From contig JAJDTF010000099.1 in the NCBI GenBank assembly GCA_022827265.1, positions 71,105-135,104 on the forward strand: a DNA stretch of 64,000 nt, given 5' to 3'. This document shows, one piece after another, positions 47,830 through 64,000 of this stretch (positions are counted from its first letter, which is position 1; each line of letters opens with the position of its first letter). The DNA comes from Acidimicrobiia bacterium (GTDB lineage Bacteria; Actinomycetota; Acidimicrobiia; Acidimicrobiales; Poriferisodalaceae). Both the position numbers and the translations under genes were made by a program. The notes beneath the pieces were generated by a model that was given only the letters and a program-made list of their open reading frames with translations, made no database searches and had not been told where the DNA came from.

Positions 47830-50376
47830 TCACTCGATCTGTTCGATGATGGCGGTCTCCGACAGGCTTGTGCGGATGTCGGTATCGGCCACGGTGGGGA
47901 CGTCGGGGCACCAGCGTGACATTGCGGCTTCCAGCGCTGCTTTGACATCGGCGGCAATTGCCGGAGCGTCGGCTTCGTCGCACTCGATGACGACGCTGTC
48001 GTGGACGGTCTGCACCGCGTCGGCCGTGGGGTAGCGCGCCAGCACCTCGCTCAGCCGGCCGTAGGCGTCGAGCATCACATCGGCGACGCCGCCTTGGATC
48101 GGGGCGTTGCGGTAGGCATTGGCCATCTGGCCGACCCGGGTGTGCAACGCGCGCTGCAGCAGGAACTGCTGGTCGGCGTCGCCCATGGCAACGCCCACCT
48201 CATCGATGACGGCCCGCCGCAGGTGCCGCTGCTCCAGCACTTTGTCCACCGCCGGCCGCAGCGCGCTCCCGGGCGCTGCCGACGGCGGCGCGAGATCGAA
48301 GCGGGCCAGCACCCGTTGCCACACTTCGGCCGGCCGAGGCTTGGTCGAGCAGCCGACCACAGCAGCGGCTTCGCCGAGCACCCAGTCGACCGAGAACGTG
48401 AACTGCTGACGCCGCCCGGCCGGCGTGTGTGAGCTGAACGACAGCGGCGAGCCATCGGAACACACGACGACCGGCGCGGCGAACGACAGCGCCCACGCCA
48501 CCTCGGCAACATCGATCTCGCTCAGGCCGATCGCCGGGCCGCCGGCGAAGCGGCCCGGGTCCATCGCGCCGGCCCGTTCGGCCGCGAGCAGGGCCTCGTG
48601 GACCTCCTCGGCGCTGTGATGCCGGCGCTGCTGGCTGCGCAGCGTCCGGCGAGCGTCGTCGGTGCGGGGCCACAGTGCCCCCAACCGCAGCGTGAGCGGC
48701 CAGTCGGCATCGAGCTCGGTCGCTGCGAAACGCCCGATGAAGCGATCCCGCTCGTCCACCCAGTGGGCGATACCGGGGTATGCGTTCAGGTAGGCATCGA
48801 TGAGGGCGTCGGCCTCGCCACGGCTGGTCGGCACGCCGGCGTCGGTGAGGCCGCGCGACAGCCCCGCACCGCGCTGCCCGTACAGGATTCCGAAGTTGAT
48901 GCGCTTGGCCTTGGTGCGGAACTCCTCGTAGCGGGGCCGGTCGAGTGCTGCCAGCCCCGCCGGTCCGTCGAGGCGCACGTCGAACATCCGCTCGGCGGTG
49001 GCGGTGTGGATGTCGAGACCCTGTTCGAATGCTGTCCGCAGGCCCTCGTCGCCCGCGAGCTGGGTGGCGAAGCGCAGTTCGGCCTGGCTCAAGTCGGAAT
49101 AGACGAAGACCCGCCCGGGCGAGGGCTTCATGTAGGGCTTCAGCCGAGGCGTGAAGTTCTGCGCATTCGGGTTGCGGCTGGCCAGCCGACCCGTGTTGGT
49201 GCCCACCACCTGCAGGTACTCCGGGTGCAGCCGGCCGTCGGCCCACAAGTGCTCGGCCATCGTGTGCCCATACGTGCTCAACGTCTTGGACAGGTCGCGG
49301 TAGGCCAGCAGCGCACTGCAGAGTTCGCCGCCGATGCCTGCCAGCACCGATGCGCCGAGCGAGTCAGTCGGCACTAGCGATCGGGCTCGGCCGTCGGTCT
49401 TGGTCGTCCATGCCTTCACCTCGTCGGACGCGAAGCGGTTCAGCACGTCACGCGCCTGCTGCTCGCTGTCGGGGTTCCAGCTGGGCTCGAGGCCGCCGCC
49501 GAAGAGATCGCCTTGACCGCCGCCAGTCAGCTCGGCCAAATGGGTGAGCACCTCGACGCGCCGGGACGCCAGCTCTGCCAGCTCGGCTTCCCAACCCTGC
49601 ACGTCGAAGGGCAGACCGGCGCGCTCCATGCGGTCGAGAAACGGACGGGCCGCCTGCTCCAGACGGCAGACCTCCTCCAAGCCGGCGTCTCGCAGCCCAT
49701 CACGCAGCACCTCCGACACCCACAGCGTCTCGACAGCGTCGGCGGCGGCATAAGCAACCTGGCGGTCACTCAGCGGCCCATTGGCGCCGAACGAGAACTG
49801 CGTTGTGGCTTTGCCCTCGACGCTCAGGCCCAGGTAGCGCTCGGCCGCCCAGGCCAGCCCGTGAAAGAAGCTGAAGCCGGTGAGCCCTTGATGCAGGAGG
49901 GCATCGGCCAGCTGCGCGTCCCACCAGCGCAACGACCCCACCGTCGCACCTGCAGCAGCGGCCGGCTCCATCAGATGGGTGTCGATGACCCGATCGTCAA
50001 ACGTCGCGTTCCAGGCGTCCGATGCCAGATCCGGCACCCGGAGACCCTCGTGCAGGGCGGTCGCCAGATCCACCAGATCGTGCCCGCCGACGTCGACGAC
50101 CCAAGCGCGTTCGGTGCCATCGGGAGCACGGGTCGCGGCGGAGATCACCCGCAGTTTCGGCACGCGGCCGCGCGTCTCCGCATCGCGCGGTTCGAAGTCT
50201 GTCTCGGTATCCATTGCACGGGCTGCGGATACGCTGAGCGCGTCGACGAAGTCGCCGAGCCCGTCGCGGCCTACGACTGTGATGGGAACCTGAGCAGGGT
50301 CACGCGAAGCGTCAGGACGAGGATCGAGCCGCCGGAGGTCCGCTGGAGCACGGGCAGCATCAGCGGCGGCGTCCAC
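47830..50376 (-). CDS. family A DNA polymerase with 3'-5' exonuclease domain, no 5' nuclease domain, and a large insertion
   Basis: Exo motifs: AMDTETD (I), NATFDDRV (II), YAAADAVE (III). Pol motifs: YSDLSQAELR (A), RTKAKRINFGILYG (B), RNAPIQGGVAD, TVHDSVVIE (C). The GTG start at 50376 is needed to include Exo I. Confidence 0.85.
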   Translation of the reverse strand: MDAAADAARAPADLRRLDPRPDASRDPAQVPITVVGRDGLGDFVDALSVSAARAMDTETDFEPRDAETRGRVPKLRVISAATRAPDGTERAWVVDVGGHDLVDLATALHEGLRVPDLASDAWNATFDDRVIDTHLMEPAAAAGATVGSLRWWDAQLADALLHQGLTGFSFFHGLAWAAERYLGLSVEGKATTQFSFGANGPLSDRQVAYAAADAVETLWVSEVLRDGLRDAGLEEVCRLEQAARPFLDRMERAGLPFDVQGWEAELAELASRRVEVLTHLAELTGGGQGDLFGGGLEPSWNPDSEQQARDVLNRFASDEVKAWTTKTDGRARSLVPTDSLGASVLAGIGGELCSALLAYRDLSKTLSTYGHTMAEHLWADGRLHPEYLQVVGTNTGRLASRNPNAQNFTPRLKPYMKPSPGRVFVYSDLSQAELRFATQLAGDEGLRTAFEQGLDIHTATAERMFDVRLDGPAGLAALDRPRYEEFRTKAKRINFGILYGQRGAGLSRGLTDAGVPTSRGEADALIDAYLNAYPGIAHWVDERDRFIGRFAATELDADWPLTLRLGALWPRTDDARRTLRSQQRRHHSAEEVHEALLAAERAGAMDPGRFAGGPAIGLSEIDVAEVAWALSFAAPVVVCSDGSPLSFSSHTPAGRRQQFTFSVDWVLGEAAAVVGCSTKPRPAEVWQRVLARFDLAPPSAAPGSALRPAVDKVLEQRHLRRAVIDEVGVAMGDADQQFLLQRALHTRVGQMANAYRNAPIQGGVADVMLDAYGRLSEVLARYPTADAVQTVHDSVVIECDEADAPAIAADVKAALEAAMSRWCPDVPTVADTDIRTSLSETAIIEQIE

Positions 50377-50497
50377 GAGCGCACCCTAGGACGGCCCTGC
50401 GACAGCGACCGGACCGCAGTTGACATGCGCACACTGCGAAACTGGTAGCCGCACTCGGCCGATGTGAACTGAGTTGGCCATCACCGGAGCGTCAGTC

Positions 50498-50809
50498 ATG
50501 TCGTTGCACAGCCCACCCCACCCCGGCGAGATCGTCAAGCGGGAGTGCTTGGTACCGCTCGGGCTTACGGTGAATCAGGCGGCGCGAGGCTTGGGCGTGA
50601 CCAGACGGGCGCTGTCGAGTCTGGTGAACGGCAGTAGAGGTGTGTCAGCCGAGATGGCCATCCGGTTGTCCGCGGCGTTCGGCTCGACCCCCGAGGTGTG
50701 GCTGCAGATGCAGATGTCGTTCGATCTCTGGGAGGCGCGCAAGCGGTTCGCGTCGTTGCGCGTGGAACGCTTTCCCGGCGCGCTCGCGCCAGTAACTTCC
50801 GCAGAGTGA
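50498..50809 (+). CDS. HigA-family HTH (XRE) antitoxin-like protein, orphan
   Basis: HPGEIVKRECLVPLGLTVNQAARGLGVTRRALSSLVNGSRGVSAEMAIRLSAAFGSTPEVWLQMQ is the canonical HigA pattern. Only 121 nt lie upstream, too short for a HigB gene. Confidence 0.85.
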   Translation: MSLHSPPHPGEIVKRECLVPLGLTVNQAARGLGVTRRALSSLVNGSRGVSAEMAIRLSAAFGSTPEVWLQMQMSFDLWEARKRFASLRVERFPGALAPVTSAE

Positions 50810-50843
50810 CGGCCAGACCAAACCACGGCTCAACTGGAGGGAC

Positions 50844-52862
50844 ATGACCAGCGATGCGGTGAACAACTACGCAGGCTTCATCTGGTCGGTGGCCGACCTT
50901 CTGCGTGGCGTGTACAAGCAGTCGGAGTATGGACGGGTGATCCTGCCGCTGACGGTGCTGCGTCGTCTCGACTGCGTGCTGGAGCCCACCAAGGCCGCTG
51001 TGCTGGAGGCTGATGAGACGCTGCCGGTGACGCTGCAGAACCGCGACCCGGTGTTGTACCAAGCATCAGGCCAGTCGTTCTACAACACGTCCCATCAAAC
51101 GTTCGCCACGCTGCTCAGCGACCACGACCACGTCGCCGGCCACCTGCGCAACTACATCGCCGGCTTCTCAGACTCGGCCCGCGACATCGTCGACAAGTTC
51201 AACTTCGAGGCTCAGATCGAGCGGCTCGACAGCCACAACCTGCTTTACCTGGTGGTGTCGAAGTTCGCCGAGATCGATCTGAGCCCCGATGCGGTGTCCA
51301 ACCTAGAGATGGGTTACCTCTACGAAGAGTTGATCCGCAAGTTCTCCGAGCTGTCGAACGAAACCGCAGGCGAGCACTTCACGCCCCGCGAGGTAATCCG
51401 CCTCATGGTGAACTTGCTGTTCCGTGAAGACGACGAACTGCTGACCCGCCGCGGCGTTGTGAAGACCCTGCTCGACCCGGCGTGCGGCACCGGCGGGATG
51501 CTGTCAATTGCCGAGGACTACTTGCGCGACCTCAACCCCGACGGCGAACTGCGAGTGTTCGGCCAGGAGCTGAACGCCGAGACCTACGCCACCTGCCGCG
51601 CCGACATGCTCATCAAGGGCCTCGAAGCCGAGAACATCCGCTTCGGCAACAGCTTCGACAACGACCAGCACGTCGGACAGCGGTTCGACTACCTGCTGGC
51701 CAACCCGCCGTTCGGGGTGGAGTGGAAGATGGTGGCCGATGCCGTGCGCGACGAGCATGCCGAGAGGGGTTTCGCCGGGCGCTTCGGCGCAGGGCTGCCC
51801 CGCATCAACGACGGCAGCTTCCTATTCCTGCAACACATGATCTCGAAGATGAAGCGCCCCGAAGAGGGCGGCGCCCGACTGGCGATCGTGTTCAACGGCT
51901 CCCCGCTGTTCACCGGAGGCGCCGGCTCAGGCGAATCGGAGATCCGCCGGTGGATCATCGAGAGCGACATGCTCGAGGCCGTCGTCGCCCTGCCCGACCA
52001 GCTGTTCTACAACACCGGCATCTCCACCTACTTCTGGGTGGTCACCAACCGCAAGGCGCCCCGACGGCGCGGCAAGGTACAGCTCATCGACGCCCGCGAG
52101 AGCTTCACCAAGATGCGCAAGAGCCTCGGCCAGAAGCGCAAGGAGATTGCCACCGAGCAGATCGACGACATCACCCGCCTCTACGGCGCCTTCGAGGAAG
52201 GCCCGCGCTCGAAGATCTTCCCCAACGAGTCCTTCGGGTTCCTGCGCATCACCGTGGAGCGCCCGCTGCAACTGCGTTGGGAGATCACCGAAGAAACGCT
52301 CGCAATTGTCGAGTCTCACAAGGCGCTGGCCAAGCTCGACCCCGAAGTCCGTGAAGCGTTGCTCGTCGCGCTGCGGGAACATCTCGACGAAGAGTTCGAA
52401 TCGGACGACACAGTGCAGGCGCTGGTGCGCGCGGCAGTGCTTCCAGCGACCGGCACGAAGGCCGCGGCGGTAGGCAAGGCCGTCGCGGGTGCACTCGCCA
52501 TCCGTGATCCATCCACACCAGTACAGGTCGACCGGCGGGACAACCCTAAGCCCGACCCGGAGCTTCGCGACCACGAGCACGTGCCGCTACCCCTGACCCC
52601 GGTCGCATACGAGTCCGACCCGAGCGCTCGCATCGACACTATCGAGTACCGCTCCGCAATCAAGCATTATCTGCACGGCGAAGTGGTCCCGTATGTCCCA
52701 GATGCTTGGCACGACGAAAACAAGACCAAAATCGGCTACGAGATTCCGCTCACCCGCTACTTCTATACCTACAACTCACCCCGCCCAATAGAAGAGATAG
52801 ATATAGAGATAATGGACCTTGAAGATGAGATTCGGACCCTACTGATTGAAGTTACCGGGTGA
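50844..52862 (+). CDS. hsdM: type I restriction-modification system methyltransferase subunit
   Basis: N-terminal HsdM_N (IWSVADLLRG), SAM motif LDPACGTGGML, catalytic LANPPFG. ggaggg precedes the ATG. Confidence 0.95.
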   Translation: MTSDAVNNYAGFIWSVADLLRGVYKQSEYGRVILPLTVLRRLDCVLEPTKAAVLEADETLPVTLQNRDPVLYQASGQSFYNTSHQTFATLLSDHDHVAGHLRNYIAGFSDSARDIVDKFNFEAQIERLDSHNLLYLVVSKFAEIDLSPDAVSNLEMGYLYEELIRKFSELSNETAGEHFTPREVIRLMVNLLFREDDELLTRRGVVKTLLDPACGTGGMLSIAEDYLRDLNPDGELRVFGQELNAETYATCRADMLIKGLEAENIRFGNSFDNDQHVGQRFDYLLANPPFGVEWKMVADAVRDEHAERGFAGRFGAGLPRINDGSFLFLQHMISKMKRPEEGGARLAIVFNGSPLFTGGAGSGESEIRRWIIESDMLEAVVALPDQLFYNTGISTYFWVVTNRKAPRRRGKVQLIDARESFTKMRKSLGQKRKEIATEQIDDITRLYGAFEEGPRSKIFPNESFGFLRITVERPLQLRWEITEETLAIVESHKALAKLDPEVREALLVALREHLDEEFESDDTVQALVRAAVLPATGTKAAAVGKAVAGALAIRDPSTPVQVDRRDNPKPDPELRDHEHVPLPLTPVAYESDPSARIDTIEYRSAIKHYLHGEVVPYVPDAWHDENKTKIGYEIPLTRYFYTYNSPRPIEEIDIEIMDLEDEIRTLLIEVTG

Positions 52863-54049
52863 ATCACAGCGCTTCGCATAGTGGCGTCCAATTGGGTCAT
52901 GTGTGCGATATCACGCTCGGGAAGATGCTTCAGTTATCGCCCAATGGGCCTCACGACTGTGAAGTCCCGTATTTGCGTTCTGGTTCCCTTGACTGCCTCG
53001 GACAAACTGATGCTTGGCGAACGATGTACTGCAGCCCGAATGAACTCAGGGCATACGGTCTGAAAGCGGGCGACCTCCTCGTGGCTGAAGGCGGTGATGT
53101 AGGTCGTGCCGAGTTTGTCCCTGAACTGCCGACAGATGCCATCTTTCAGAATTCCCTTCACCGAGTGCGCCTGCGCACTGAAGGCGACCTGCGATTCGTC
53201 CGTTACGCGCTCGAATCCATACGCCTCGCCGGGTGGTTAGATGTACTCTGCAACAAGACGACTTTTGGCCATTTGACTGTCGAAAAACTACGCCGGCTCC
53301 GCATACCGTGGCCATCACCCAGGGAGCAGACGGCAATGGTCGAGCATCTGCAGATCGAACAAGCTCGTATCGGCGCTTTGCTCGACAGCAAGCGCCGGGT
53401 AATGGAGCTACTTGGCGAACGACGTTTATTGCTCGCAGAGCAGGCTCTGAGGGACATGCTGCTGCAGGAACGAGTTGTGCCCTTGAAGCGCTTGGTTATG
53501 GAGAGCAATGAACGCCACGGCTCTGACCGACAGCCAACAATCTTGTCAGTATCGATTCATCAGGGTGTGGTTCCACGCAGCAGTGTTTCCGCTACTGAAT
53601 CTAGGGCGAGCGAATTTGCTAGCTACAAGACTTGCCGGCCCGGTGACATTGTCATCAACAGGATGCGAGCTTTCCAAGGCGGAGTGGGTGCCGTGCGCCA
53701 AGAGGGAGTCGTGAGTCCCGACTATACCGTGCTTAGAGTAGGTGATCAGGTTGCCAGCGATTACCTGCATTTTGCTATGCGCTCGCCTTGGTTCATATCC
53801 GAAATGACTCGGCGCGTGCGCGGGATCGGTGCCACCAATCAGGCACAAGTCCGGACACCCCGCATCAATTTCTCGGAGCTTGGCGAGATCCGTATCCCCG
53901 TTCCGTCCATGAGATCTCAGAAAGATCTGGTGTCTGACTTGGCTTCGAGGGAGGCGGCTATCGCTAATGTGCTCGATTGCCAAAGTAAGCAAGTGGCACT
54001 CTTGATGGAACGCTGGAGTGCACTTGTCACGACAACGATTACTAGCTGA
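52859..54049 (+). CDS. hsdS: type I restriction-modification system specificity subunit
   Basis: The GTG start overlaps the hsdM stop. Two TRD-like halves are separated by a conserved helical spacer (EQTAMVEHLQIEQARIGALLD...). Visibly AT-richer than the flanks. Confidence 0.9.
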   Translation: MNHSASHSGVQLGHVCDITLGKMLQLSPNGPHDCEVPYLRSGSLDCLGQTDAWRTMYCSPNELRAYGLKAGDLLVAEGGDVGRAEFVPELPTDAIFQNSLHRVRLRTEGDLRFVRYALESIRLAGWLDVLCNKTTFGHLTVEKLRRLRIPWPSPREQTAMVEHLQIEQARIGALLDSKRRVMELLGERRLLLAEQALRDMLLQERVVPLKRLVMESNERHGSDRQPTILSVSIHQGVVPRSSVSATESRASEFASYKTCRPGDIVINRMRAFQGGVGAVRQEGVVSPDYTVLRVGDQVASDYLHFAMRSPWFISEMTRRVRGIGATNQAQVRTPRINFSELGEIRIPVPSMRSQKDLVSDLASREAAIANVLDCQSKQVALLMERWSALVTTTITS

Positions 54050-54161
54050 ATGTTGCCGCGCGATATGTTCGAGTTTCGGGGATGGCAACCAATGGTAACC
54101 CCCGGGTGGTTCAATAGCCTGCTGCGGTGAATCCGCACAACCCAATCAGATTGCAGCGATA

Positions 54162-54518
54162 TCAGTACATCGTGACTAGGCGAACGTAATACCGAGCAAA
54201 GGTACCATGTTGCCAGAGATTACGTAACTCCGTCATCTGATACTCATGTTCGTCGATGAAGATGCAATTGCGCCGGTCAGCGCTCGATGGCATGACATCG
54301 TTCAACAAAACCGTGTTGCTGCTCCTCCACACTGTGAATCGCAGCTCCCTTGTGCGCGTGTCTATGCTCACATAACGTCGCATAAGGTCGCCCAGATTCG
54401 CATAGCCATACAACGCGGTTGAAGTATGGTTCGCAAAGATGATCAACCCATCTTCTTCTGTAGTGAACAAACGCTCGTGTTCTGACTTGGACCCGAAAGA
54501 CAACCTGAGCTTGCTCAT
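54162..54518 (-). CDS. hypothetical protein (118 aa)
   Basis: The ATG overlaps the stop of the upstream 224-aa ORF (ATGA). About 45% GC in the hand-counted line 54181-54240. No family recognised. Confidence 0.55.
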   Translation of the reverse strand: MSKLRLSFGSKSEHERLFTTEEDGLIIFANHTSTALYGYANLGDLMRRYVSIDTRTRELRFTVWRSSNTVLLNDVMPSSADRRNCIFIDEHEYQMTELRNLWQHGTFARYYVRLVTMY

Positions 54519-55189
54519 GGACCGCTCCTGATTCTATTGGGGATGGAAGCAAGGAAAGAGATACAGTCTCCTATTCGTCGTTTTAGCGCAGCAACACGGT
54601 ATTGCCTTCGGTCAAATCTACGAATGCCGAGCTGCAGGACATCCTGAATACTGCGATTGAGGCGCTGGACTTCATCAACCAGTTTGTTCGGCGGCTCAAG
54701 ACTGACTAAAGCATGTCTGTAGCCGCGCAAATCGATTGTGAAACTACGCGTGATGCGTATGTGAAGCCATCCTAAGAGCCAGAGTCGATGGCTGGTTGTA
54801 ACGACGTAAGGATCGGACTCGATCACGTCATGACCAGCTCCCACAAAGTACTCGACTTCTTGTCTAGCATGAAACTCTGGCAGCTTAACGTCGAGTGTCT
54901 GGTCGTTGGATTCCCGGTCGACGATAAGTGCTGGACATTCGATACGAAGTCCTCGTGCAGTTGAACGACCATCATTTCGCACGCGAAACGTAACCAACGT
55001 GCTGTCGAAGCTTGGGCGAACAATGATGTTGGGCCTGTTGGCGATGTACCAATATGTTGCCGGCAAGACAACGCCACTGAAGCCCAATATGCCGATCGTA
55101 AGCCAGCCCAAGAATGTTGTGGCCCAGAATGCAGTTGTGTCAACCGTCTCAGAAACAGATGAGAGTGTCTGAATCATGCCCCATGTCAC
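54515..55189 (-). CDS. hypothetical membrane-anchored protein (224 aa)
   Basis: N-terminal hydrophobic segment AFWATTFLGWLTIGILGFSGVVLPATYWYI, then a beta-rich soluble region. GTG at 55189 or ATG at 55177. No family recognised. Confidence 0.6.
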   Translation of the reverse strand: MTWGMIQTLSSVSETVDTTAFWATTFLGWLTIGILGFSGVVLPATYWYIANRPNIIVRPSFDSTLVTFRVRNDGRSTARGLRIECPALIVDRESNDQTLDVKLPEFHARQEVEYFVGAGHDVIESDPYVVTTSHRLWLLGWLHIRITRSFTIDLRGYRHALVSLEPPNKLVDEVQRLNRSIQDVLQLGIRRFDRRQYRVAALKRRIGDCISFLASIPNRIRSGP

Positions 55190-55526
55190 AGTGTGTCGCT
55201 CTGAATCGTGTGGGTTCTCGGCCGTTTACGAGTCCGGCTTAGTGATCTAGGTTGGGAAATTACTGGCGGATCAGCCAAATAGGCTCTGTAGGTTAGCGCT
55301 GAAATTGCCGATACGAGATCCAAAGGCGAGGTCCGGCCATTTTTTGCGAACTCAATCTGTTGATCTGGCCATCTCTCGGTGCATGAAGGGCCTGCTGCTG
55401 CCCGCTAGCAGGTGTTGACGAGCGGAAAGCGCTCGGCCCCCATCGACATGCTTGTGCGTGCCGCGTTAGGTAGCTGCGTGATGCATGGCCTGTTGAGACC
55501 GTAGATCTGCTTGGTAGGCAGAGGCG

Positions 55527-56825
55527 GTGAATGGGGCTGTCGACGAGGTTGCTTCCATCTGCCGCGGAGCGAGCTCGGTGTGGCTGGCGACTTGTGAGCT
55601 GCTGGAGCAGGCAGATTCGCTAGGTGTGCAGCGGGATCCATGGGCTGACGGCGATGCGCGCCAGCAGGCGGAGCGGGTTCGGGAACGTCTGGAGCGTGCC
55701 CTGAGTTGGCCGGCGGACGTGCCCCTGCACGTGGGCACAGCTGACGATGCCTCGGACGCTGGAGACGCTGTGGCGATGATGACGACGTCGTTGACCACGG
55801 GCGAGCTGTCGTACGTGGTCGCTTCGGTACTCGATGAGCAGTACTGGCGGAGCTTCACCCGGGACTGGTTGACGGAGCGGGGTCCTGTCTTCGACTTGCG
55901 TCCTGGGGACCGTTACCCAGTCGACGACATGCGCCTGAGGGGCGACGTGGGGTACAGCGCACGGCCTGAGCGACGGGGCCTGCGCGCGGGCGATCTGGCT
56001 CATGTTCGCCGCTTCCGCGTCGGCCGCATCCGCGTGATCGTTAACGGCAAGTATCCGCGCATCGTCGACCGGCTGGCTTCGTCGCTTCCCTTGGAGGCGG
56101 CGGTGCTGCTGCCGAATGAGTCATGGAGCGAACTCACCAAGCCACCAGGGCGCATAGGTCCGGTTGACTCGGAGGCGCAGCAGTCGGTTCTCTCTGAGAT
56201 GCTGCAGCAAGCCCGCGAGCGTGGCGTCGGCATGGTGGTGTTGCCCGAGCTGAGCGTGGACGGGAACATCGCCGAGTCCTTGGCGTCGGAATGGGAGCAG
56301 TCGACGGATTATCCGATGCTCTTCGCGGGGAGCGCGCACTTGCTCGATGGCGGTCGGCGTGTCAATCGGACGACAGTGCTCCTGCCAGGGGTGGGTGCTG
56401 CGTGGCACCACGACAAGACAGTCGCATTCGAGGACCGCGAGGGCAACCGTGAACCCATCGATCCGGGTGAACCGTGCATCACGCTCGGCTGCGGATATCA
56501 GGTACGCGTGGCCACGCTGATCTGCAAGGACGCCCTCGATGCCGACACTTACCGACTGGTTGCTGACCTCGGCGTACACGTGCTGGCAGTGCCGGCCATG
56601 TCAGACCGATTGGGGGACTTCGCTGCCGCCGCCAACGAGCTGATTGCTCAAGCACAAGGGGCCACAGTGGTTGCGAACAACCCGCGTCTGTGGAACGAGA
56701 GCGATGTGGAGCATGCGTTGCTCGGGCAGCCGGTGCGGGACGCCGAGCCGCGGGTGCGCGAGCACCGAAGCGAGGGTGCGCCGGATCTCGCCATTGCCCG
56801 CCTCGGCAGTGGATGGCTGCCGTGA
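55527..56825 (+). CDS. carbon-nitrogen hydrolase (nitrilase superfamily) domain protein with an unassigned N-terminal region
   Basis: Glu-Lys-Cys pattern in typical contexts: MVVLPELS (E241), WHHDKTVAF (K297), VATLICKDAL (C333). The first about 160-200 aa match no family I know. GTG start. Confidence 0.75.
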   Translation: MNGAVDEVASICRGASSVWLATCELLEQADSLGVQRDPWADGDARQQAERVRERLERALSWPADVPLHVGTADDASDAGDAVAMMTTSLTTGELSYVVASVLDEQYWRSFTRDWLTERGPVFDLRPGDRYPVDDMRLRGDVGYSARPERRGLRAGDLAHVRRFRVGRIRVIVNGKYPRIVDRLASSLPLEAAVLLPNESWSELTKPPGRIGPVDSEAQQSVLSEMLQQARERGVGMVVLPELSVDGNIAESLASEWEQSTDYPMLFAGSAHLLDGGRRVNRTTVLLPGVGAAWHHDKTVAFEDREGNREPIDPGEPCITLGCGYQVRVATLICKDALDADTYRLVADLGVHVLAVPAMSDRLGDFAAAANELIAQAQGATVVANNPRLWNESDVEHALLGQPVRDAEPRVREHRSEGAPDLAIARLGSGWLP

Positions 56826-56868
56826 TGACTGGCGGTGCCGAGGCAGCTAGTTGACATATGCTTGACGC

Positions 56869-58977
56869 ATGAGCGAAGCGGCGCTCAGCGCATTTCGGGA
56901 CAGCGTGCAGGTAGTGCTGCAGCGCAGCGCGGCGGGCGTCGACACCGACGCAGTGCAGGCTGGTGTCGACGAAGCCGTCGTCAGCGGTCGCGCTCTGCTA
57001 GTCGACTCGGCCATCCAGGAGGTCACAGCTGCAGCGGCGGAGTTGGACAGCGCCGTTCGGATCCTGCGCCGCCGCGGGGTAGCTGCCGAGGCGCTGGTGG
57101 CGCTCGGTGATGAGTTCGACGCATCACTGCTCGTCGCGCTCACGGCAGAGGCGCGGCGAGATGCCCGCGAATTTGCCCACAGCATCGGCGAGCGCATCTT
57201 GGACGCGGTGCGGGTGCAGCCGGCGTCCCCCAGCGAGCTGGCCGACCGGCTCGGCGTCGAGATCAGCCAGGTCAGCAGGGCCGCTCGGGGGTTGCGAGAC
57301 TCCGGCGAACTCGCCGTGGATCAGGTGCCCGGCGATGGTCGCCGAAGGCTGTACCGAGCTGTGCACCACGAAGCTGGGGCGAGACGTCGCCAAGGCTGGC
57401 GAGCTTTTGTGGAGCGGCTATCGGCGCTGCGCGCCGACGACGTGAGCAGTGACTTGCTGCCGGGGCGCGCAGGTGACGACCTCTCTCGGCAGGGGATGGA
57501 CACCGTCTGTGCGGCGTTCCGGCAGGATCTCGAATGGAGCCGCTACGAACCGACGCCTGTGTACGAGGTGGATATTCCCAAGACGAGCGGCGGAGTGCGT
57601 CCTGCCGCGGCGCTGCGGTTGGCTGACCGGCTGGCGTATGCCGCACTGGTCGAACGCTGTCGGGCCGAGATCGAGGCCAGCCTGACCTCTCGCCGGGCCG
57701 TGCTGTGGCCGAGGGGGTTCAAGAGCGACAAGCAATGGGTGCAGTTGGAGGGGTTCGTCAGCGAGAGCGCTGAGACGCATGTGCTGTCCCTCGACATTCA
57801 ATCGTTCTACGACTCGATTCGGCACGATGTGCTCGCCGAAGCGTTGGAGCGAGCGGGATGCGACCGTGCTGTGGTCGTCGCCCTGCAGGAGTGGCTCGGC
57901 GAAATCACCTGTGGCCGCAAGCGGGGCCTGCCCCAAGGACTTGCCGCGTCCGACCCGCTCGCCACTTTGGTGTTGGCACCGCTCGATCAGGCGTTGGCCG
58001 CGACTGGGGCCCGCTACGTGCGCCACGGCGACGACCTGAGAATCCTTGGCACCTATGACGAAGTCGAGGACGCAGAGCGACTGGCGCGAGCGCAGCTGAG
58101 GACACTGGAACTGACGGTCAATGACGACAAGACACGAGTGCTCTGTCACGACACCTACATGGACCGTCGCACGGAGGTCGACAGCGCTGTTCGCCAGTAC
58201 CTCGCAGCACCGGACCGCGTCGAGCGCAGCGCGGCCGTGATCACTCTGCTCGACGCGCTGGGTGCCGAAGAGGAATTGTCGTGGAGCTGGTACCACGACA
58301 CGCTCAGAGTCCAGGAAGTCTTGTCGTCTGTGGGCTCGACGCTGCAGCCGAGCGACACCGAGGCTCTGATGTACGTACTGCAGGAAGTAGCCGAGGCAGA
58401 GGAGACTTCCGCGCGATTCCACCAGCGATGGGCCGCCCGCCGTCGGAGGCAGCCCGAGACGTTCCTGATGCAAGCGGGGCTTTCATTGCTCGCAGCTGCC
58501 GGCGATGCGGCCCCCGCTGAGGAGTTCAAGGCATCGGTGGTTGCGCGGCCCGAGTACGCCGATTTCCTGTCCACCTACGTCGAAGAAACTGCGCCGACGA
58601 ACCCGGCCGCCGTTGCGGGGCTGCTGCAGCGCATCGAGGAGACCGGGATCACTTACGACGCGCAATGGCTGCGCCTGTATTCGGTACTCGGTGATGCGGG
58701 CGCGACCGGGGCATTCGACGACCTCGCGCAGATTCATACGGCCTCCACCGAACAGGGCTGGATGCGGCGCCTGCCAGCCGCCCGCTTCTTGGCAAGCCGA
58801 GGCCGGCTCGATACTGCGTATCTGCCGGAAATTGTCGAGAACGCGCCTGAAGCCCTGCGCGATGACGTCCTGCAAATCGTGAAGCACTCGTCGCCACTTC
58901 ATTCCAAGCAATCGGTCCACAAACTCATCCGCAAAGAGGGCGCGACGGCTGCCGCTCTGATTGCAGCCACAGCATGA
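56869..58977 (+). CDS. reverse transcriptase, UG/Abi-like (wHTH - RT - helical-repeat C-terminus)
   Basis: RT motifs: IPKTSGGVRP, LSLDIQSFYDSI, GLPQGLAASDPLA, YVRHGDDLRI (D388-D389 at 58030-58035), LTVNDDKT. The C-terminal about 270 aa are helical. The N-terminal wHTH-like segment is aa 105-165. Confidence 0.9.
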   Translation: MSEAALSAFRDSVQVVLQRSAAGVDTDAVQAGVDEAVVSGRALLVDSAIQEVTAAAAELDSAVRILRRRGVAAEALVALGDEFDASLLVALTAEARRDAREFAHSIGERILDAVRVQPASPSELADRLGVEISQVSRAARGLRDSGELAVDQVPGDGRRRLYRAVHHEAGARRRQGWRAFVERLSALRADDVSSDLLPGRAGDDLSRQGMDTVCAAFRQDLEWSRYEPTPVYEVDIPKTSGGVRPAAALRLADRLAYAALVERCRAEIEASLTSRRAVLWPRGFKSDKQWVQLEGFVSESAETHVLSLDIQSFYDSIRHDVLAEALERAGCDRAVVVALQEWLGEITCGRKRGLPQGLAASDPLATLVLAPLDQALAATGARYVRHGDDLRILGTYDEVEDAERLARAQLRTLELTVNDDKTRVLCHDTYMDRRTEVDSAVRQYLAAPDRVERSAAVITLLDALGAEEELSWSWYHDTLRVQEVLSSVGSTLQPSDTEALMYVLQEVAEAEETSARFHQRWAARRRRQPETFLMQAGLSLLAAAGDAAPAEEFKASVVARPEYADFLSTYVEETAPTNPAAVAGLLQRIEETGITYDAQWLRLYSVLGDAGATGAFDDLAQIHTASTEQGWMRRLPAARFLASRGRLDTAYLPEIVENAPEALRDDVLQIVKHSSPLHSKQSVHKLIRKEGATAAALIAATA

Positions 58978-59008
58978 TGCTGACGTCAGAACGGAAGAGG
59001 CTGTCAGC

Positions 59009-62000
59009 ATGAGTTCTGCCACAGAGGCCGCGTTCGAGGCGCATATTGCCGACTGGTTGGTGGCACATGGTGGTTATCTGCGGGTCAAGATCGGCAATGC
59101 GGCAGACGAGCCGCAGGACTTCGATGCTGCGGCCGGGGTCGATACGGCTGATCTATTCGAGTTCATCGGAAAGACACAGGGTGCTGATTGGGAACGCTTG
59201 GTCACGACTGCCTACGGCGGCGACCGTGACAAGGCGCAGACCGGATTCGCGCTGCGGTTGGCGGCCGAGTTGGACAAGCGGGGCACCGTTGACGTGTTGC
59301 GGCGGGGTGTGGTGGATCGCAACGTCACGATCCAGCTCGCCTACTTTCGGCCTGCTCATGGCTTGACGCCCGAGTTGGCTGAGCGCTACGACGCGAACGT
59401 GCTGTCGGTCACCCGGCAGTTGCCCTTCGAACCGGGCAGCAACCAGACCGTCGATCTGGGCCTGTTCGTGAACGGCGTTCCCGTGGCCACGGCTGAGCTC
59501 AAGAACCCGCTCACGGGTCAAGGCGTCGAGGATGCCGTCGCTCAGTACCGCAAGCGTCCGCAGGGGAACCGAACCTTGGGTCGGCTCGGCATGGTGCATT
59601 TCGCCGTTGATCCGTTCTCGGTGGCGATGACCACCCGGCTGGCCGGAGCGAGCACTCGGTTCCTGCCATTCAACCAAGGTCATGAACTCGGCAAGGGCAA
59701 CCCTCCGAACGCCAACGGGCACAGCACCTCGTACCTGTGGGAGCAGGTGTGGCACCGTGACGCCTGGCTGGACATCTTGGGCCGCTTCATTCATGTCGAC
59801 AAGCCGTCGAAGGGTTCCAAGGCTCGTCCCGAGGTCATCTTTCCGAGGTTCCACCAGTGGGATGCCGTGCGGCGACTCGAGGCCGACGCCCGGCAGCACG
59901 GGCCGGGTCGCAGCTACCTGGTGCAGCACTCTGCGGGTTCGGGCAAGTCCAACTCGATCGCATGGCTGGCGCACCGGCTGTCCTCGCTGCATGCCGCAGA
60001 CGACGGCAGGGTCTTCGACAAGGTCGTAGTGATCACCGACCGGCTCGTGCTTGACCGCCAACTGCAAGACACGATCAGCCAATTCGAACATGCAGTGGGC
60101 GTGGTGCAGCGCATCGAGGAGTCCTCCGCGCAGCTCGCTGAGGCGTTGGCTGGCGAGCAGGCGCGCATCATCGTCACGACGCTGCAGAAGTTCCCGCACG
60201 TCTTCGACAAGATCGGATCGCTGCCCGAACGCAGCTATGCGGTCATCGTCGATGAGGCCCACTCGTCACAGACCGGCGAGGCCGCCAAGGAACTGCGGCG
60301 AGCGCTTGGCTCGGCCGAGCCTGAGATCGACGACGGCGCAGACGTGGAGCCCGGCGAGGCCGAGGTGCTGCTGGCCGAGGCCGTGGCGGCGCGGGGACCA
60401 CAGCCCAATCTGTCGTTCTTCGCGTTCACCGCGACCCCCAAGGGCCGAACCTTGGAGCTCTTCGGCGAGCCCGACGACAACGGCAAGCATCAGCCGTTCC
60501 ATCTGTACCCGATGCGCCAAGCCATCGAAGAGGGTTTCATCATGGACGTGCTGGCCGGGTACACGACCTACACGCAGTACTCCCATCTGGAAAAGGCGAT
60601 CCTCGAGGATCCCTCCTATGAGACCGGCAAGGCCCGCAGCGCGCTGGCCCGGTTCGTCACTCTGCACCCCGACAACCTGGCGCAGAAGGCCGAGATCGTC
60701 GTGGAGCATTTCCGCTCGAAGATCGCCCGCCAAGTCGGGAAAAAGGCGAAGGCGATGGTGGTGTGCTCGTCGAGACCCCATGCGGTGCGGATGTGGGAGG
60801 CGCTGCGCGGCTACGCAGCGAACAACGGCTACGAGCTCGGGGTGCTGGTGGCGTTCTCGGGCGAGGTCGACGGGCTGACAGAGACGAAGGCGAACGGCTT
60901 CGGCGAGTCGCAGACCGCGGCGCAGTTCGACACCGACCAGTGGCAGATCATGGTGGTGGCGGAGAAGTTCCAAACCGGGTTCGACCAGCCGAAACTGGCC
61001 GCCATGTACGTCGACAAGACGCTGACGGGGCTGGCCGCTGTGCAGACGCTGTCGAGGCTCAACCGCATCCATCCCGACAAGTCGGGAACCTTCGTCGTGG
61101 ACTTCGTGAACGACGCCGATGAGATCGGCGAGGCGTTCGCGGTGTACCACGGCAAGACTGTCGCGCCGCCGACCGACCCGAACCTGCTGTTCGACACCCG
61201 GCACGACCTCGACGGATTCGGCGTGCTCGACACGGGCGAGATGCAGAGGGCCGCTGCGCTGCTGCTGAGCGAGAACGCACACGCTCAGGTGCATGCTGCG
61301 CTTCAGCCGGCGGTTGAACGTTTCGGCGGGCTGTCCGACGAGGATCAGGAAGCCTTTCGGGATGCGCTCGGGCGATTCGTGCGCGTCTATGGCTTCCTGT
61401 CGCTCGTGGTGCCGTTCCGCAACCCTGAGCTCGAAAGGGACTGCCTGTTTTGCCGTGCGCTGGCCGCGATCATCCGAGATTCTTCGGCAGGCGAGACCAT
61501 CAACCTGGGCTCGGAGGTGGAGCTGACCCACCTGCGGCACGAACTGGCCTTCGAAGGACCGATCGAACTGCCCGGCGGCGAAGCCGAGGTGACGACCATC
61601 TACTCCGGAACCGGTCCGATGGTGGACCCCGAAGAGGAACGCCTGTCGGAGATCATCGCCCGCATGAATGAGCGCTTCGGCACCACTTGGACCGACGAGG
61701 ACCGCTTGGTGTTCGAGGCAGCCGCCAGCGACCTGATCGCCGACGTTCACGTGCAGAACCAGGCCGCCAGCAACGACGAGGCCACATTCCGTGACCACGT
61801 GTTCCCCGACCGGTACGAGAAGGCGTTGCTGGCACGAATCGACCGCAACAGCGGACTGATCTACGAGTACCTCGACGACGAGAACCTGCAAGCGGCGGTG
61901 CGCGACATCTATGCCGTGGAAGTCCATCGGCGTGCCACGGTGGCTCGCCAGCGAACCTGTCCCATCGGCGAACTGCTCGGCGCTGACCGGGAGTCGCAGT

Positions 62001-62491
62001 TCTTGGAGTACAGGTCCACATTGCGCTGGGACATCCGTGAACAGCGCAAGGGCGGCCACCCTGAGGATGCAGCGATCAAGACCATCGCCGGGTTCGCAAA
62101 CTCGGCCGTCGGCGGCACGCTGCTGGTGGGCATTGCCGACGACGGCACGGTGCTCGGCCTAGAGGATGACTTCGCCACGTTCTCCAAGCGAGGCGAACGT
62201 GGCGACCACGACCTGTGGGGGCAACACCTCGACAACCTGATCCGCAACCGCCTCGGGGACTCTGTGCTGCCGCTGCTGGCGACGGAGTTCCACGTGATCA
62301 ACGGCAACCACGTTGCCCGAGTCAGCATCGACCCATCGGGCTTCCCGATCTACGAACGCAAGGGCGACAGCCAGGTTTTCTGGCTCCGCACCCCCACCTC
62401 CACCGTCGAGGTCCGCGACGCCGAAGAACGCGACCGCATCATCGCCCGCCGCTGGCCCCCAGCACCCCAGGCAACGGCTATCCGTTCGTAG
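59009..62491 (+). CDS. hsdR: type I restriction endonuclease subunit R fused to a C-terminal AlbA_2 (Schlafen-like) domain
   Basis: Nuclease DLGLFVNGVPVATAELKN; helicase motifs HSAGSGKS, VIVDEAHSSQ, FAFTATP, QTGFDQP. C-terminal ESQFLEYRS...IKTIAGFANSAVGGTLLVGIADDGTVLGL. The ATG at 59009 with an upstream gagg is preferred over the TTG at 58961. Confidence 0.9.
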   Translation: MSSATEAAFEAHIADWLVAHGGYLRVKIGNAADEPQDFDAAAGVDTADLFEFIGKTQGADWERLVTTAYGGDRDKAQTGFALRLAAELDKRGTVDVLRRGVVDRNVTIQLAYFRPAHGLTPELAERYDANVLSVTRQLPFEPGSNQTVDLGLFVNGVPVATAELKNPLTGQGVEDAVAQYRKRPQGNRTLGRLGMVHFAVDPFSVAMTTRLAGASTRFLPFNQGHELGKGNPPNANGHSTSYLWEQVWHRDAWLDILGRFIHVDKPSKGSKARPEVIFPRFHQWDAVRRLEADARQHGPGRSYLVQHSAGSGKSNSIAWLAHRLSSLHAADDGRVFDKVVVITDRLVLDRQLQDTISQFEHAVGVVQRIEESSAQLAEALAGEQARIIVTTLQKFPHVFDKIGSLPERSYAVIVDEAHSSQTGEAAKELRRALGSAEPEIDDGADVEPGEAEVLLAEAVAARGPQPNLSFFAFTATPKGRTLELFGEPDDNGKHQPFHLYPMRQAIEEGFIMDVLAGYTTYTQYSHLEKAILEDPSYETGKARSALARFVTLHPDNLAQKAEIVVEHFRSKIARQVGKKAKAMVVCSSRPHAVRMWEALRGYAANNGYELGVLVAFSGEVDGLTETKANGFGESQTAAQFDTDQWQIMVVAEKFQTGFDQPKLAAMYVDKTLTGLAAVQTLSRLNRIHPDKSGTFVVDFVNDADEIGEAFAVYHGKTVAPPTDPNLLFDTRHDLDGFGVLDTGEMQRAAALLLSENAHAQVHAALQPAVERFGGLSDEDQEAFRDALGRFVRVYGFLSLVVPFRNPELERDCLFCRALAAIIRDSSAGETINLGSEVELTHLRHELAFEGPIELPGGEAEVTTIYSGTGPMVDPEEERLSEIIARMNERFGTTWTDEDRLVFEAAASDLIADVHVQNQAASNDEATFRDHVFPDRYEKALLARIDRNSGLIYEYLDDENLQAAVRDIYAVEVHRRATVARQRTCPIGELLGADRESQFLEYRSTLRWDIREQRKGGHPEDAAIKTIAGFANSAVGGTLLVGIADDGTVLGLEDDFATFSKRGERGDHDLWGQHLDNLIRNRLGDSVLPLLATEFHVINGNHVARVSIDPSGFPIYERKGDSQVFWLRTPTSTVEVRDAEERDRIIARRWPPAPQATAIRS

Positions 62492-63146
62492 CAACCCGAT
62501 CGCAGCATTCGGAAACCGAGTCGCGGAAGCGGTCGAACGAAGGGCTCCGACCTGTCGGTTGGGCACCCGCCTCGAGGGCGGCGGCGACACGGCCGGCGAC
62601 GCGTGGCGAGTCGGCGGCACTGTAGGCGTCGCGCCGGTTGGTTCGACCGGTTCTTCGGCTCAGATCTTCCTTCGGGTTCTGCACCGCGTCTCGATCTGCT
62701 GGAGACCGGTCGAGTTGGCCTCGCCACGAATTGCGCACTTCCTCCGCTGCGTCGGGAAAGAGCATCCACCACGACTCGATTTCTTGAACAGGCACGACGG
62801 CATGGGCATCGGTCAGGCCAACTGCCCGAAGCGCATCTTCGGTTTGGGCTTGGAGTCGACCCGTGGCGTCGGGCGCGTCGGAGTCTCTATGAACGAAGAC
62901 ACAGGCGACGGGTCGCCGGTTTGCACGTACGACATCGGCGACACGTTCTGTCCATGCGTGAACGGCCTCAGGCGAAGCAGACCGCTGCAGCGAGGGAGGT
63001 GCGTTCCGGGCCTTGACACGTCCTTGGAGTTCGGGGCAGAGCGCCTCGATCAAGCGCGCAACAGAGCGAGCATCGTTGGTGTTCTCACCGAAGACGAGCA
63101 CGACTGAGGCGCGTGCGTTCGGTGTTCGACGGGCCACCGTTGCCAT
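62478..63146 (-). CDS. DUF4276-like (Toprim-like) protein
   Basis: 222 aa, 8 nt downstream of an ABC-type ATPase gene. VLVFGENTND..., VFVHRDSD and VVPVQEIESWWML resemble the E / DxD / E.EAW pattern I associate with DUF4276. The 3' end overlaps hsdR by 14 nt (convergent). Confidence 0.55.
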   Translation of the reverse strand: MATVARRTPNARASVVLVFGENTNDARSVARLIEALCPELQGRVKARNAPPSLQRSASPEAVHAWTERVADVVRANRRPVACVFVHRDSDAPDATGRLQAQTEDALRAVGLTDAHAVVPVQEIESWWMLFPDAAEEVRNSWRGQLDRSPADRDAVQNPKEDLSRRTGRTNRRDAYSAADSPRVAGRVAAALEAGAQPTGRSPSFDRFRDSVSECCDRVATNG

Positions 63147-63154
63147 CTGTCGGC

Positions 63155-64000
63155 TCAGTCGGGAACGCCGCCGAGGGCACCGCCAAACCAGAGTTCACCG
63201 AGGCCCAGCTTGGACTTGAGCGCCACCCGTCGCAACTTGCCGCTCGGGATACAGGGAATGAGCGAAGCACCCGTTTCGGCGTCTCGGTCACACACAACTA
63301 GTTCGTCTGGTTGAAGGCGGTTGACGAAGGTGGGGGCGTGTGTCGTGACGAGCAGTTGTGTGTGCTGAGAAGCAGCCCTCATGCGCTCGACGAGTAGGTC
63401 GAGTGCGTAGGGATGCAGCCCGTGATCGGCTTCCTCGATCGCCGTGAACGGGGGCGGGTCTGGTTCATGCAACGCAGCCAGTAATGCAAGCAGCCGAACG
63501 GTGCCGAATGATGCGTCGGCCAAGTCGATCGGTGCGCGGACACCCCGCTCGCGCAACATTACGGCCACGCCGCGACTGGAGCCGCCGACTGGTTCGAACT
63601 CAATGCCCTTGAGACCCGGCAGGCAGTCGCGCACCTCGTCTACGAGGATCGAGAACGTGTCAGGTGCCTCCTGCGACAGATGGTGCAGTACCGAGGCCAG
63701 ATTGCTGGCATCGTCCGCGAGAGTTTCTCGGATGATTCGGAAGGGCCTCCGAGCGGCGATCATGTCCGGTTCGAGCACACGGATATCCGTGAGGAATCGT
63801 GCCAAGGAACGGATGCCCTCGCCGCCTTCTTCGTCGGACCAGTCGGGAAGCGTCGCTAGGCCTGTGGTTTGCGGGTCTGCAAGGCGGCGAGTGGTCGGCT
63901 CATGGTCACCCGGATCGTCTCGAACGATCTCGACCTTCTGACCCGAAACGGTGATGCGACGACCCTGGCCCTTGACACGCTTGAACGAGAATGTCTCTCT
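63155..64000 (-). CDS. AAA_15/AAA_21-type (ABC-like) ATPase, 5'-truncated by the window edge
   Basis: I translated the frame beyond the track's TTG start (63805) and found it stays open to position 64000. Features include FGTVRLLALLAAL, Walker B/D-loop FTAIEEADHGLHP and H-loop LLVTTHAP. Walker A must lie outside the window. Confidence 0.8.
   Translation of the reverse strand, partial: RETFSFKRVKGQGRRITVSGQKVEIVRDDPGDHEPTTRRLADPQTTGLATLPDWSDEEGGEGIRSLARFLTDIRVLEPDMIAARRPFRIIRETLADDASNLASVLHHLSQEAPDTFSILVDEVRDCLPGLKGIEFEPVGGSSRGVAVMLRERGVRAPIDLADASFGTVRLLALLAALHEPDPPPFTAIEEADHGLHPYALDLLVERMRAASQHTQLLVTTHAPTFVNRLQPDELVVCDRDAETGASLIPCIPSGKLRRVALKSKLGLGELWFGGALGGVPD

Follow-up and report, generated by a model that had tools for sequence, protein, structure and literature searches.

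Among the reverse transcriptases (RTs) of the UG/Abi radiation, partnerships with a nitrilase are known from several groups of class 3: the nitrilase is fused to the RT in UG1/DRT1, UG5-large/DRT11 and UG29, and is encoded by a separate gene in UG5-small (cluster 249) and UG6 (cluster 285), the nitrilases of the latter two belonging to one clade with those of UG1 and UG5. The combination of RT and nitrilase leads to abortive infection in DRT1, where the nitrilase cysteine is essential (PMC13275509), as well as in UG5/DRT11 (PMC13436386). DRT1, for which the term "minimal retron" has been used, depends on both of its active sites, and its DNA synthesis serves to switch the nitrilase on as well as to hold it in check; the suspected substrate of this nitrilase is a nucleotide or a molecule of the nicotinamide adenine dinucleotide (NAD) type. 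Class 1 of the UG/Abi enzymes is defined by an alpha-repeat C-terminal domain (Mestre et al. 2022, PMC9226505), and UG22 is a catalogued, experimentally uncharacterized group whose published partner, "cluster 79", is HEPN-like (PMC9226505). Here we describe a pair of adjacent genes, ORF1 and ORF2, in a 64,000-nt stretch of DNA from an Acidimicrobiia bacterium (assembly GCA_022827265.1, contig JAJDTF010000099.1, positions 71,105 to 135,104; hereafter the window, in whose coordinates positions are given), in which a class 1 RT closest to UG22 is encoded next to a nitrilase-superfamily protein. In the papers we found, RT-nitrilase defense has been described just for class 3 UG enzymes. We propose, as a reading to which we give an even chance, that ORF1 and ORF2 constitute an autonomous two-gene module acting as an anti-phage system of the abortive-infection type.

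ORF1 (55527-56825, GTG start, 432 aa) and ORF2 (56869-58977, ATG start, 702 aa) are co-oriented on the plus strand, on which all features of the pair lie. ORF calling places them 43 nt apart, with exactly the coordinates and lengths given in the original prediction, a reading of the window from its sequence that took the pair for a split relative of DRT1 inside a type I restriction-modification (R-M) locus. As homologues of ORF1 fall into 47 clusters at 49% identity or more and those of ORF2 into about 65 clusters at 46% or more, and as the two genes are syntenic in seven other loci, they cannot be put down to chance open frames in GC-rich DNA; the listing of cluster P0001 also included 49-aa Bacillus proteins that are unrelated to it. 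An alternative start found in some databases gives ORF1 415 aa, but the 432-aa start is favored because conservation begins at about residue 8, with C12 and W19 being nearly invariant. The motifs that the original prediction had quoted for the two proteins are all present, and in the alignments of homologues they occupy columns that are invariant.

The central part of ORF2 (residues ~175-446; 57391-58206) comprises the fingers, palm and thumb of an RT, which is matched by Pfam RVT_1 over residues 236-426 (E 3.6e-15) and by the PADLOC model RT_UG22 with 212 bits (E 3.4e-63; model positions 20-472 of 476). The runner-up RT model is UG21 with 132 bits, followed by UG32, UG20, UG19 and UG23, and none of the class 3 models (UG1, UG5, UG6, UG24, UG29) is among the 25 best listed. 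Across 46 relatives P237/K238, D309, the G353-S361 block, H386-G387-D388-D389 (with the catalytic D388-D389 at 58030-58035) and N418/K421/T422 are invariant. In the AlphaFold2 (AF2) model of the protein (pLDDT 78.6, pTM 0.68) the RT core is followed by an all-helical alpha-repeat (HEAT-like) C-terminal domain (residues 450-702; 58216-58977), and the best fold matches, extending over 550-620 columns, are to DRT6, DRT4/UG15, AbiK, AbiA and Abi-P2, all of which run through the helical tail. Residues 1-165 (56869-57363), the proposed adaptor, are predicted to form four long helices (2-103) and a winged helix (106-164), with helices at 106-116, 121-128 and 132-144 and strands at 148-153 and 156-164; Pfam MarR_2 matches residues 109-159 with 24.3 bits, below its 27-bit cut-off. 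ORF2 is a class 1 UG/Abi RT, closest to UG22, and lies on a divergent UG22 branch, since its score falls short of the 332-347 bits of canonical members. Thus, the original prediction of a UG/Abi-type RT with an alpha-repeat tail and a putative N-terminal winged-helix module agrees with PADLOC, Pfam, the AF2 model and the fold matches, while its notion of a split RT of the DRT1/UG1 kind has to be given up in favor of class 1.

Residues ~195-432 of ORF1 (56109-56825) are a nitrilase (C-N hydrolase) superfamily domain with an intact catalytic tetrad. The top 50 PDB matches obtained with Foldseek for the AF2 model of ORF1 (pLDDT 78, pTM 0.80; the models of both proteins are of moderate confidence) are nitrilase-superfamily structures only, with E 1e-9 to 1e-7, ~260 aligned columns and a target-normalized template modeling (TM) score of 0.5-0.65. 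For profile comparisons and conservation we used two alignments, A1 with 28 close relatives and A2 with 46 distant relatives, down to 21% identity. The A2 family profile matches mouse Nit2 (2w1v; E 9e-4, 21.4 bits), the nitrilase domain of DRT1 (9yfd; E 7e-3, 18.5 bits), NAD synthetase glutaminase domains and a Pyrococcus nitrilase, DRT1 being no closer to the family than Nit2. In the profile alignment E241 (codon 56247-56249), K297 (56415-56417), E309 (56451-56453) and C333 (56523-56525) fall on E43, K112, E128 and C153 of Nit2, respectively, and C333 falls on C1116 of DRT1, whose replacement in the C1116A mutant abolishes defense (PMC13275509). All four are invariant in both A1 and A2, and together with P240, G268, H271 and N280 they are the sole invariant residues in A2. 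The catalytic triad of E241, K297 and C333 that had been picked out from the sequence is thereby borne out, as is the description of ORF1 as a nitrilase-superfamily domain behind an unassignable N-terminal region of ~190 residues, on which the fold search and the family profile agree. This region (residues 1-194; 55527-56108) is modeled as a helical bundle up to residue ~118 and a small beta region from 121 to 194, and has no family match in Pfam, NCBIfam, PADLOC or PHROG.

Searched alone, ORF1 has no significant match in Pfam, PADLOC, NCBIfam or PHROG, and because its single-sequence score lies below the Pfam threshold, its superfamily membership rests on profile, fold and tetrad. The very weak similarity to canonical nitrilases could suggest that ORF1 is a catalytically dead pseudo-nitrilase that serves as a scaffold for the RT, and the loop at 304-313, beside E309, is indeed modeled at low confidence. 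However, the four catalytic positions along with P240, G268, H271 and N280 remain invariant down to 21% identity, a pattern not expected of a dead enzyme, and we regard such a scaffold as very improbable. Judging by its conserved predicted active site, ORF1 is likely to be a catalytically intact enzyme of the C-N hydrolase type. Among other members of the family, 14 of 46 are matched by Pfam CN_hydrolase at E <= 0.01, a NUDIX-fused relative (P0145) rises above the PF00795 threshold with 26.3 bits, and distant relatives match the PADLOC RT-nitrilase models weakly (E 1e-4 to 2e-5). An identity of ORF1 as a HEPN protein, the published type of UG22 partner, was considered and rejected: it has no HEPN family match and no conserved R-x4-6-H motif, since R153 of its lone R-x5-H string (R153-H159) is not conserved.

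The window pair resembles UG22 systems in that this is the best RT model over the whole length of the enzyme, in the RT core joined to an alpha-repeat domain and in the two-gene arrangement. It departs from them in that canonical UG22 RTs have ~550-570 aa and no N-terminal winged-helix module, and in that its partner is encoded upstream, has 432 aa and belongs to the nitrilase superfamily; cluster 79 is described as HEPN-like but could in principle overlap with the ORF1 family. With DRT1/UG1, DRT11 and UG29 it has in common the combination of an RT with a nitrilase domain, C333 being aligned to the catalytic cysteine of DRT1. In DRT1 and DRT11 this combination confers protection of the abortive-infection type, for which both activities are required. 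The window pair differs from them in several respects: its RT is of class 1, the two proteins are separate with the nitrilase first, ORF1 has its own N-terminal domain of ~190 residues, and the RT is unfused with 702 aa, in contrast to the class 3 fused RTs of >1000 aa. UG5-small and UG6 are similar in having the nitrilase as a separate gene beside a UG RT, and hence the separate nitrilase polypeptide, which the original prediction had regarded as novel, is already known. They differ in that their RTs are of class 3, in that the UG6 nitrilase lies downstream and comes with a DnaG-type primase, and in that no winged-helix adaptor has been described for either. AbiK, Abi-P2, DRT4 (UG15) and DRT6, whose structures have been solved and several of which are protein-primed, template-independent DNA polymerases, provide the best fold matches to ORF2, helical domain included; unlike the window pair they are single-gene systems with no nitrilase partner or N-terminal winged helix, and their identity to ORF2 is 11-15%. 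Four features are undescribed in the literature searched: a nitrilase partner for a class 1 RT, the nitrilase-like family of ORF1 with its N-terminal domain, an adaptor common to RecA-fused and stand-alone partners, and a conserved element in the spacer between the genes. PADLOC-type tools would flag the RT alone, as UG22.

A tblastn search against all fetched loci recovered the pair, with a spacer of 42-56 nt, in seven other distinct loci from Acidimicrobiales-type metagenome-assembled genomes, including sponge-associated Candidatus Poriferisodalis, so that the nitrilase-RT gene pair is conserved as had been anticipated. The identities of ORF1 and the RT to their counterparts drop in parallel across these loci (76/81, 67/71, 61/65, 55/61, 53/56, 51/61 and 40/50%). 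In the window the pair does lie between hsdS (52859-54049) and hsdR (58961-62491), with hsdM at 50844-52862, all on the plus strand and outside the module, and the 3' end of ORF2 overlaps the longest hsdR ORF by 17 nt. The same RT-to-hsdR junction is seen in one other locus, L001 (on the same contig as L004), where hsdR is 89% identical to that of the window as against 76-81% for the RT pair beside it. Such an arrangement might mean that the pair functions jointly with the type I R-M genes around it, for instance as an accessory or back-up of HsdMSR, in the manner of R-M operons whose embedded defense cargo needs Hsd proteins for its activity. We consider this a highly improbable explanation: hsdR, hsdM and hsdS are all missing from the flanks of 4-6 kb available on either side of the pair in six of the seven other distinct loci, and the cargo between hsdS and ORF1 in L001 is entirely unlike that of the window. 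With hsdR following the pair in just one of the seven, the R-M embedding is incidental, and the position between hsdS and hsdR, which had been put forward as a property of the module, is not one. GmrSD_N, Fic, DUF4062 and transposases are found nearby in other loci, and in the window type I R-M genes lie on both sides of the pair, with the candidate pair HEC-01A/B downstream. The setting of the pair is a defense island, and the module is independent of the R-M genes.

More distant relatives within the ORF1 family, at 25-34% identity, are followed not by an RT but by other partners. Downstream of P0064 (L011-13), P0189 (L014) and the L026 member lies a gene for a protein of ~180-200 aa with a C-terminal winged helix, and a nitrilase-like gene plus a winged-helix protein of ~180 aa is the simplest and apparently commonest arrangement. 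P0053, recovered from three independent metagenomes (L015-17), has, 44 nt further on, a gene for a 539-aa protein that combines the N-terminal module with a full RecA (Pfam RecA 454 bits; TIGR02012 543 bits vs a cut-off of 325). The RecA fusion (L015:2985-4604; also in L016 and L017) has an N-terminal helical and winged-helix extension of ~190 residues, and the gene after it encodes a tubulin-tyrosine-ligase-like ATP-grasp protein. A hidden Markov model (HMM) of ORF2 residues 1-185 can be aligned over almost its whole length with the N-terminus of the RecA fusion (81 bits) and with the stand-alone partners (27-37 bits). When run against 3137 stop-to-stop segments, taken from the window and from all loci, the HMM reaches E <= 4e-7 only for genes following nitrilase-like genes, and it has no match to the other helix-turn-helix (HTH) proteins in those loci. 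P0260, a UG22-type RT 46% identical to ORF2 over RT and tail, has an unrelated N-terminus of 120 residues; as it differs in both its N-terminus and its partner, the occurrence of the adaptor follows the nitrilase partner, not the RT. Based on these sequence comparisons, the winged-helix module appears to be the conserved cognate partner of the nitrilase-like family.

Members of the P0260 clade have upstream a 242-aa protein (L024:4276-5004) with no family assignment, its stop overlapping the RT start, for which homology to ORF1 was sought by BLASTP and not found. The canonical UG22 RTs P0264 and P0265 (332-347 bits, 552-569 aa) are without adaptor and nitrilase, and P0265 has an overlapping downstream protein of 231 aa (L021:6656-7351) that matches two PHROGs of unknown function. 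Either the 242-aa or the 231-aa partner could be the published cluster 79.

The spacer between ORF1 and ORF2 contains the element TTGACATATGCTTGAC (TTGAC-N6-TTGAC; 56851-56866), which is separated from the ATG of ORF2 by 2 nt and occurs once in the 64-kb window vs 0.04 expected. Loci with an RT partner have it exactly once each, in the same place, while the remainder of the spacer is not conserved. It likewise precedes the partner gene once in L011-13 and twice in L015-17, L026 and L027 have ATGAC-N6-TTGAC, and L071 has a related repeat with an 11-bp period; in loci whose neighbor is not the winged-helix module it was not found. The central hexamer is TATGCT, TATAAT, TATAGT or TATACT (TAnnnT), 6-7 nt before the start codon, with no Shine-Dalgarno sequence between the two. 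This element is probably the promoter/operator of the partner gene. In light of what is generally known of actinobacterial promoters, TAnnnT may be the -10 box of a leaderless transcript, and the direct-repeat half-sites, one helical turn apart, would make a plausible operator for the predicted winged helix. A search for a classical sigma-70 promoter in 54000-59200 found none. The exact 16-mer also has 40 matches in viral contigs, all in AT-rich contigs and with no related genes, which we attribute to chance.

Upstream of ORF1 no second copy of the repeat was found, even with two mismatches allowed, and in an alignment of eight loci the 337-nt leader shows no conservation beyond the ribosome-binding/start region. 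A non-coding RNA (ncRNA) in this leader was rejected in view of this lack of conservation and of Rfam, which gave nothing relevant in 50000-64000. The pair shares with retrons the logic of an RT encoded beside a potentially toxic effector, but differs from them in that no ncRNA is detectable at the window locus by leader alignment or Rfam and in that its RT falls outside the retron clade. The flanking leader, to which the original prediction had drawn attention, is thus unconserved, and the conserved non-coding element is the one in the ORF1-ORF2 spacer.

An operator-like direct repeat at the partner gene, together with the frequency of the simple form in which a nitrilase-like protein is accompanied by a winged-helix protein of ~180 aa, recalls toxin-antitoxin (TA) or addiction pairs. 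Under such an interpretation the nitrilase-like protein would be the toxin and the winged-helix protein the antitoxin and autorepressor, with a role in the stabilization of mobile DNA or in stress response, and the fusion to RT or RecA would merely add regulation. Transposases adjoin some of the loci and the pair is found moving between genomic contexts, as might be expected of addiction modules. However, because the TTGAC element lies between the two genes and not before the first, classical autoregulation of the whole operon is impossible; moreover, the "toxin" is the smaller of the two proteins, and its partner has in this lineage a polymerase active site that is fully conserved. We therefore judge a TA-like pair to be rather unlikely, though the TA and abortive-infection readings can both hold.

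Returning to the abortive-infection module, we posit that the RT (ORF2) acts as sensor and regulator and ORF1 as effector. By analogy with AbiK, Abi-P2 and DRT4, the RT would make DNA by protein-primed, template-independent synthesis. The nitrilase-like protein, under the control of the RT, would hydrolyze some essential metabolite that carries an amide or amine, and the fusion of relatives of ORF1 to NUDIX hints that this could be a nucleotide or a molecule of the NAD type. The helical and winged-helix module of ~165 residues would couple the RT to the nitrilase-like protein, presumably by physical contact with ORF1, and probably binds TTGAC-N6-TTGAC, which would result in autoregulation of a leaderless transcript. 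If so, a dedicated adaptor would have brought a class 1 RT together with another nitrilase-like enzyme, itself catalytically intact.

Several points weigh against this proposal. The score of ORF1 with Pfam CN_hydrolase (PF00795) is 11.9 bits (E 0.14), with the gathering cut-off at 23.2 bits, so that of the two Pfam matches foreseen by the original prediction RVT_1 was found on ORF2 and CN_hydrolase stayed below threshold on ORF1, and neither RTasNitrilase nor RT_UG5-nitrilase of PADLOC matches ORF1 at E <= 0.01. The defense association of UG22 was scored inconclusive by Mestre et al. in the published version of their work (PMC9226505), and protein priming in class 1 is extrapolated to ORF2 from relatives at 11-15% identity. 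Furthermore, the neighbors of the nitrilase-like gene in L011 are metabolic (TetR, dehydrogenases, acyl-CoA dehydrogenase) and the NUDIX-fused forms stand alone on plasmids, on account of which the wider nitrilase-like family need not be defensive; the non-RT contexts of the family amount to about six distinct loci, haphazardly picked.

These metabolic neighbors, the MarR-like matches in the partner, the bona fide RecA fused to it in L015 and the NUDIX fusions, which suggest nucleotide housekeeping, could instead point to a metabolic or DNA-damage-response operon, with a C-N hydrolase under a MarR-like regulator and the RT or RecA as its link to DNA repair. Yet the RT falls in the defense-associated UG/Abi radiation and not with any housekeeping RT, and in the window and L001 the pair is inside an R-M operon, beside HEC-01. 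The patchy distribution of the pair, its variable flanks and its co-inheritance as a unit likewise argue against such an operon, and MarR dimers are not usually laid out as a helical region of 100 residues with a winged helix C-terminal to it. On balance, we find this explanation improbable, and retain the abortive-infection module as our proposal.

The wider ORF1 family, as recovered by an exhaustive profile search, comprises 1093 clusters at the 50% identity level (E <= 1e-3), mostly of ~440 aa; a search with the A2 profile in a word-indexed database had returned almost only close relatives, and one metagenome scan for family loci had yielded two. In light of its exchangeable partners, we tentatively raise the possibility, which we hold to be on the doubtful side, that the nitrilase-like protein and the module of ~170 residues form a widespread, mainly actinobacterial effector-adaptor chassis onto which nucleic-acid enzymes have been grafted independently as sensors, a UG22 RT here and a full RecA elsewhere, with TTGAC-N6-TTGAC as its own operator and the window pair not a DRT variant. 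If this were true, the pair would be one member of a new modular immune-system family, and would offer a genetically separable system for learning what defense nitrilases hydrolyze. An effector family whose members are found beside an RT or a RecA sensor, without any sensor or fused to NUDIX provides natural "domain-swap" controls, useful for studying how effectors are restrained and what they target. In any case, a likely fold and active site can now be assigned to >1000 currently unannotated protein clusters, and the conserved cis element is directly testable for binding.

Among the longer members of the family (578-725 aa) are fusions of the nitrilase-like protein to NUDIX (P0111, P0120, P0145, P0156, P0186; L029:5386-7509 and L030:5272-7452, with 650-725 aa). 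They occur on plasmids of Rhodococcus, Mycolicibacterium and Streptomyces, apparently without a winged-helix partner, and are annotated in databases just as "NUDIX domain-containing protein". In marine metagenome contigs (L018-L020) P0049, 35% identical to ORF1, has upstream a 1451-aa protein (L018:1252-5607) with a weak N-terminal NACHT/AAA_16 ATPase signature, and the contigs stop right after the nitrilase-like gene. No relatives of ORF1 were found in IMG/VR and INPHARED, and the RT retrieved only generic group II intron RTs from plasmids; carriage of the pair by phages or plasmids was rejected as a candidate on this basis.

The surroundings of the pair in the window have further peculiarities. 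Between hsdS and ORF1 two overlapping minus-strand ORFs (54162-54518, 118 aa; 54515-55189, 224 aa) have no match in Pfam, PADLOC, NCBIfam or PHROGs; they coincide with a GC trough of ~51-53% in 54162-55189, against ~65% around it, and look like separately acquired cargo. The corresponding slot of L001 has six different genes (HMUDK_hel, ACPS, HTH, Peptidase_M78, DCD and others). HsdR is unusually long (1176 aa), with an N-terminal extension of ~140 residues and a C-terminal Schlafen/AlbA_2 domain (residues 1011-1149). Just after hsdR, on the minus strand, are HEC-01B (62478-63146; E 7e-32) and HEC-01A (63155 to beyond 63805; E 3e-81), a candidate defense pair of an AAA ATPase plus a partner, and the hsdR of L001 is likewise followed by a 222-aa protein and an AAA_15/AAA_21 ATPase. 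Just upstream of the R-M operon, an 848-aa ORF on the minus strand (47830-50376) matches models of the bifunctional 3'-5' exonuclease/DNA polymerase I type (NF011539, E 1e-66).

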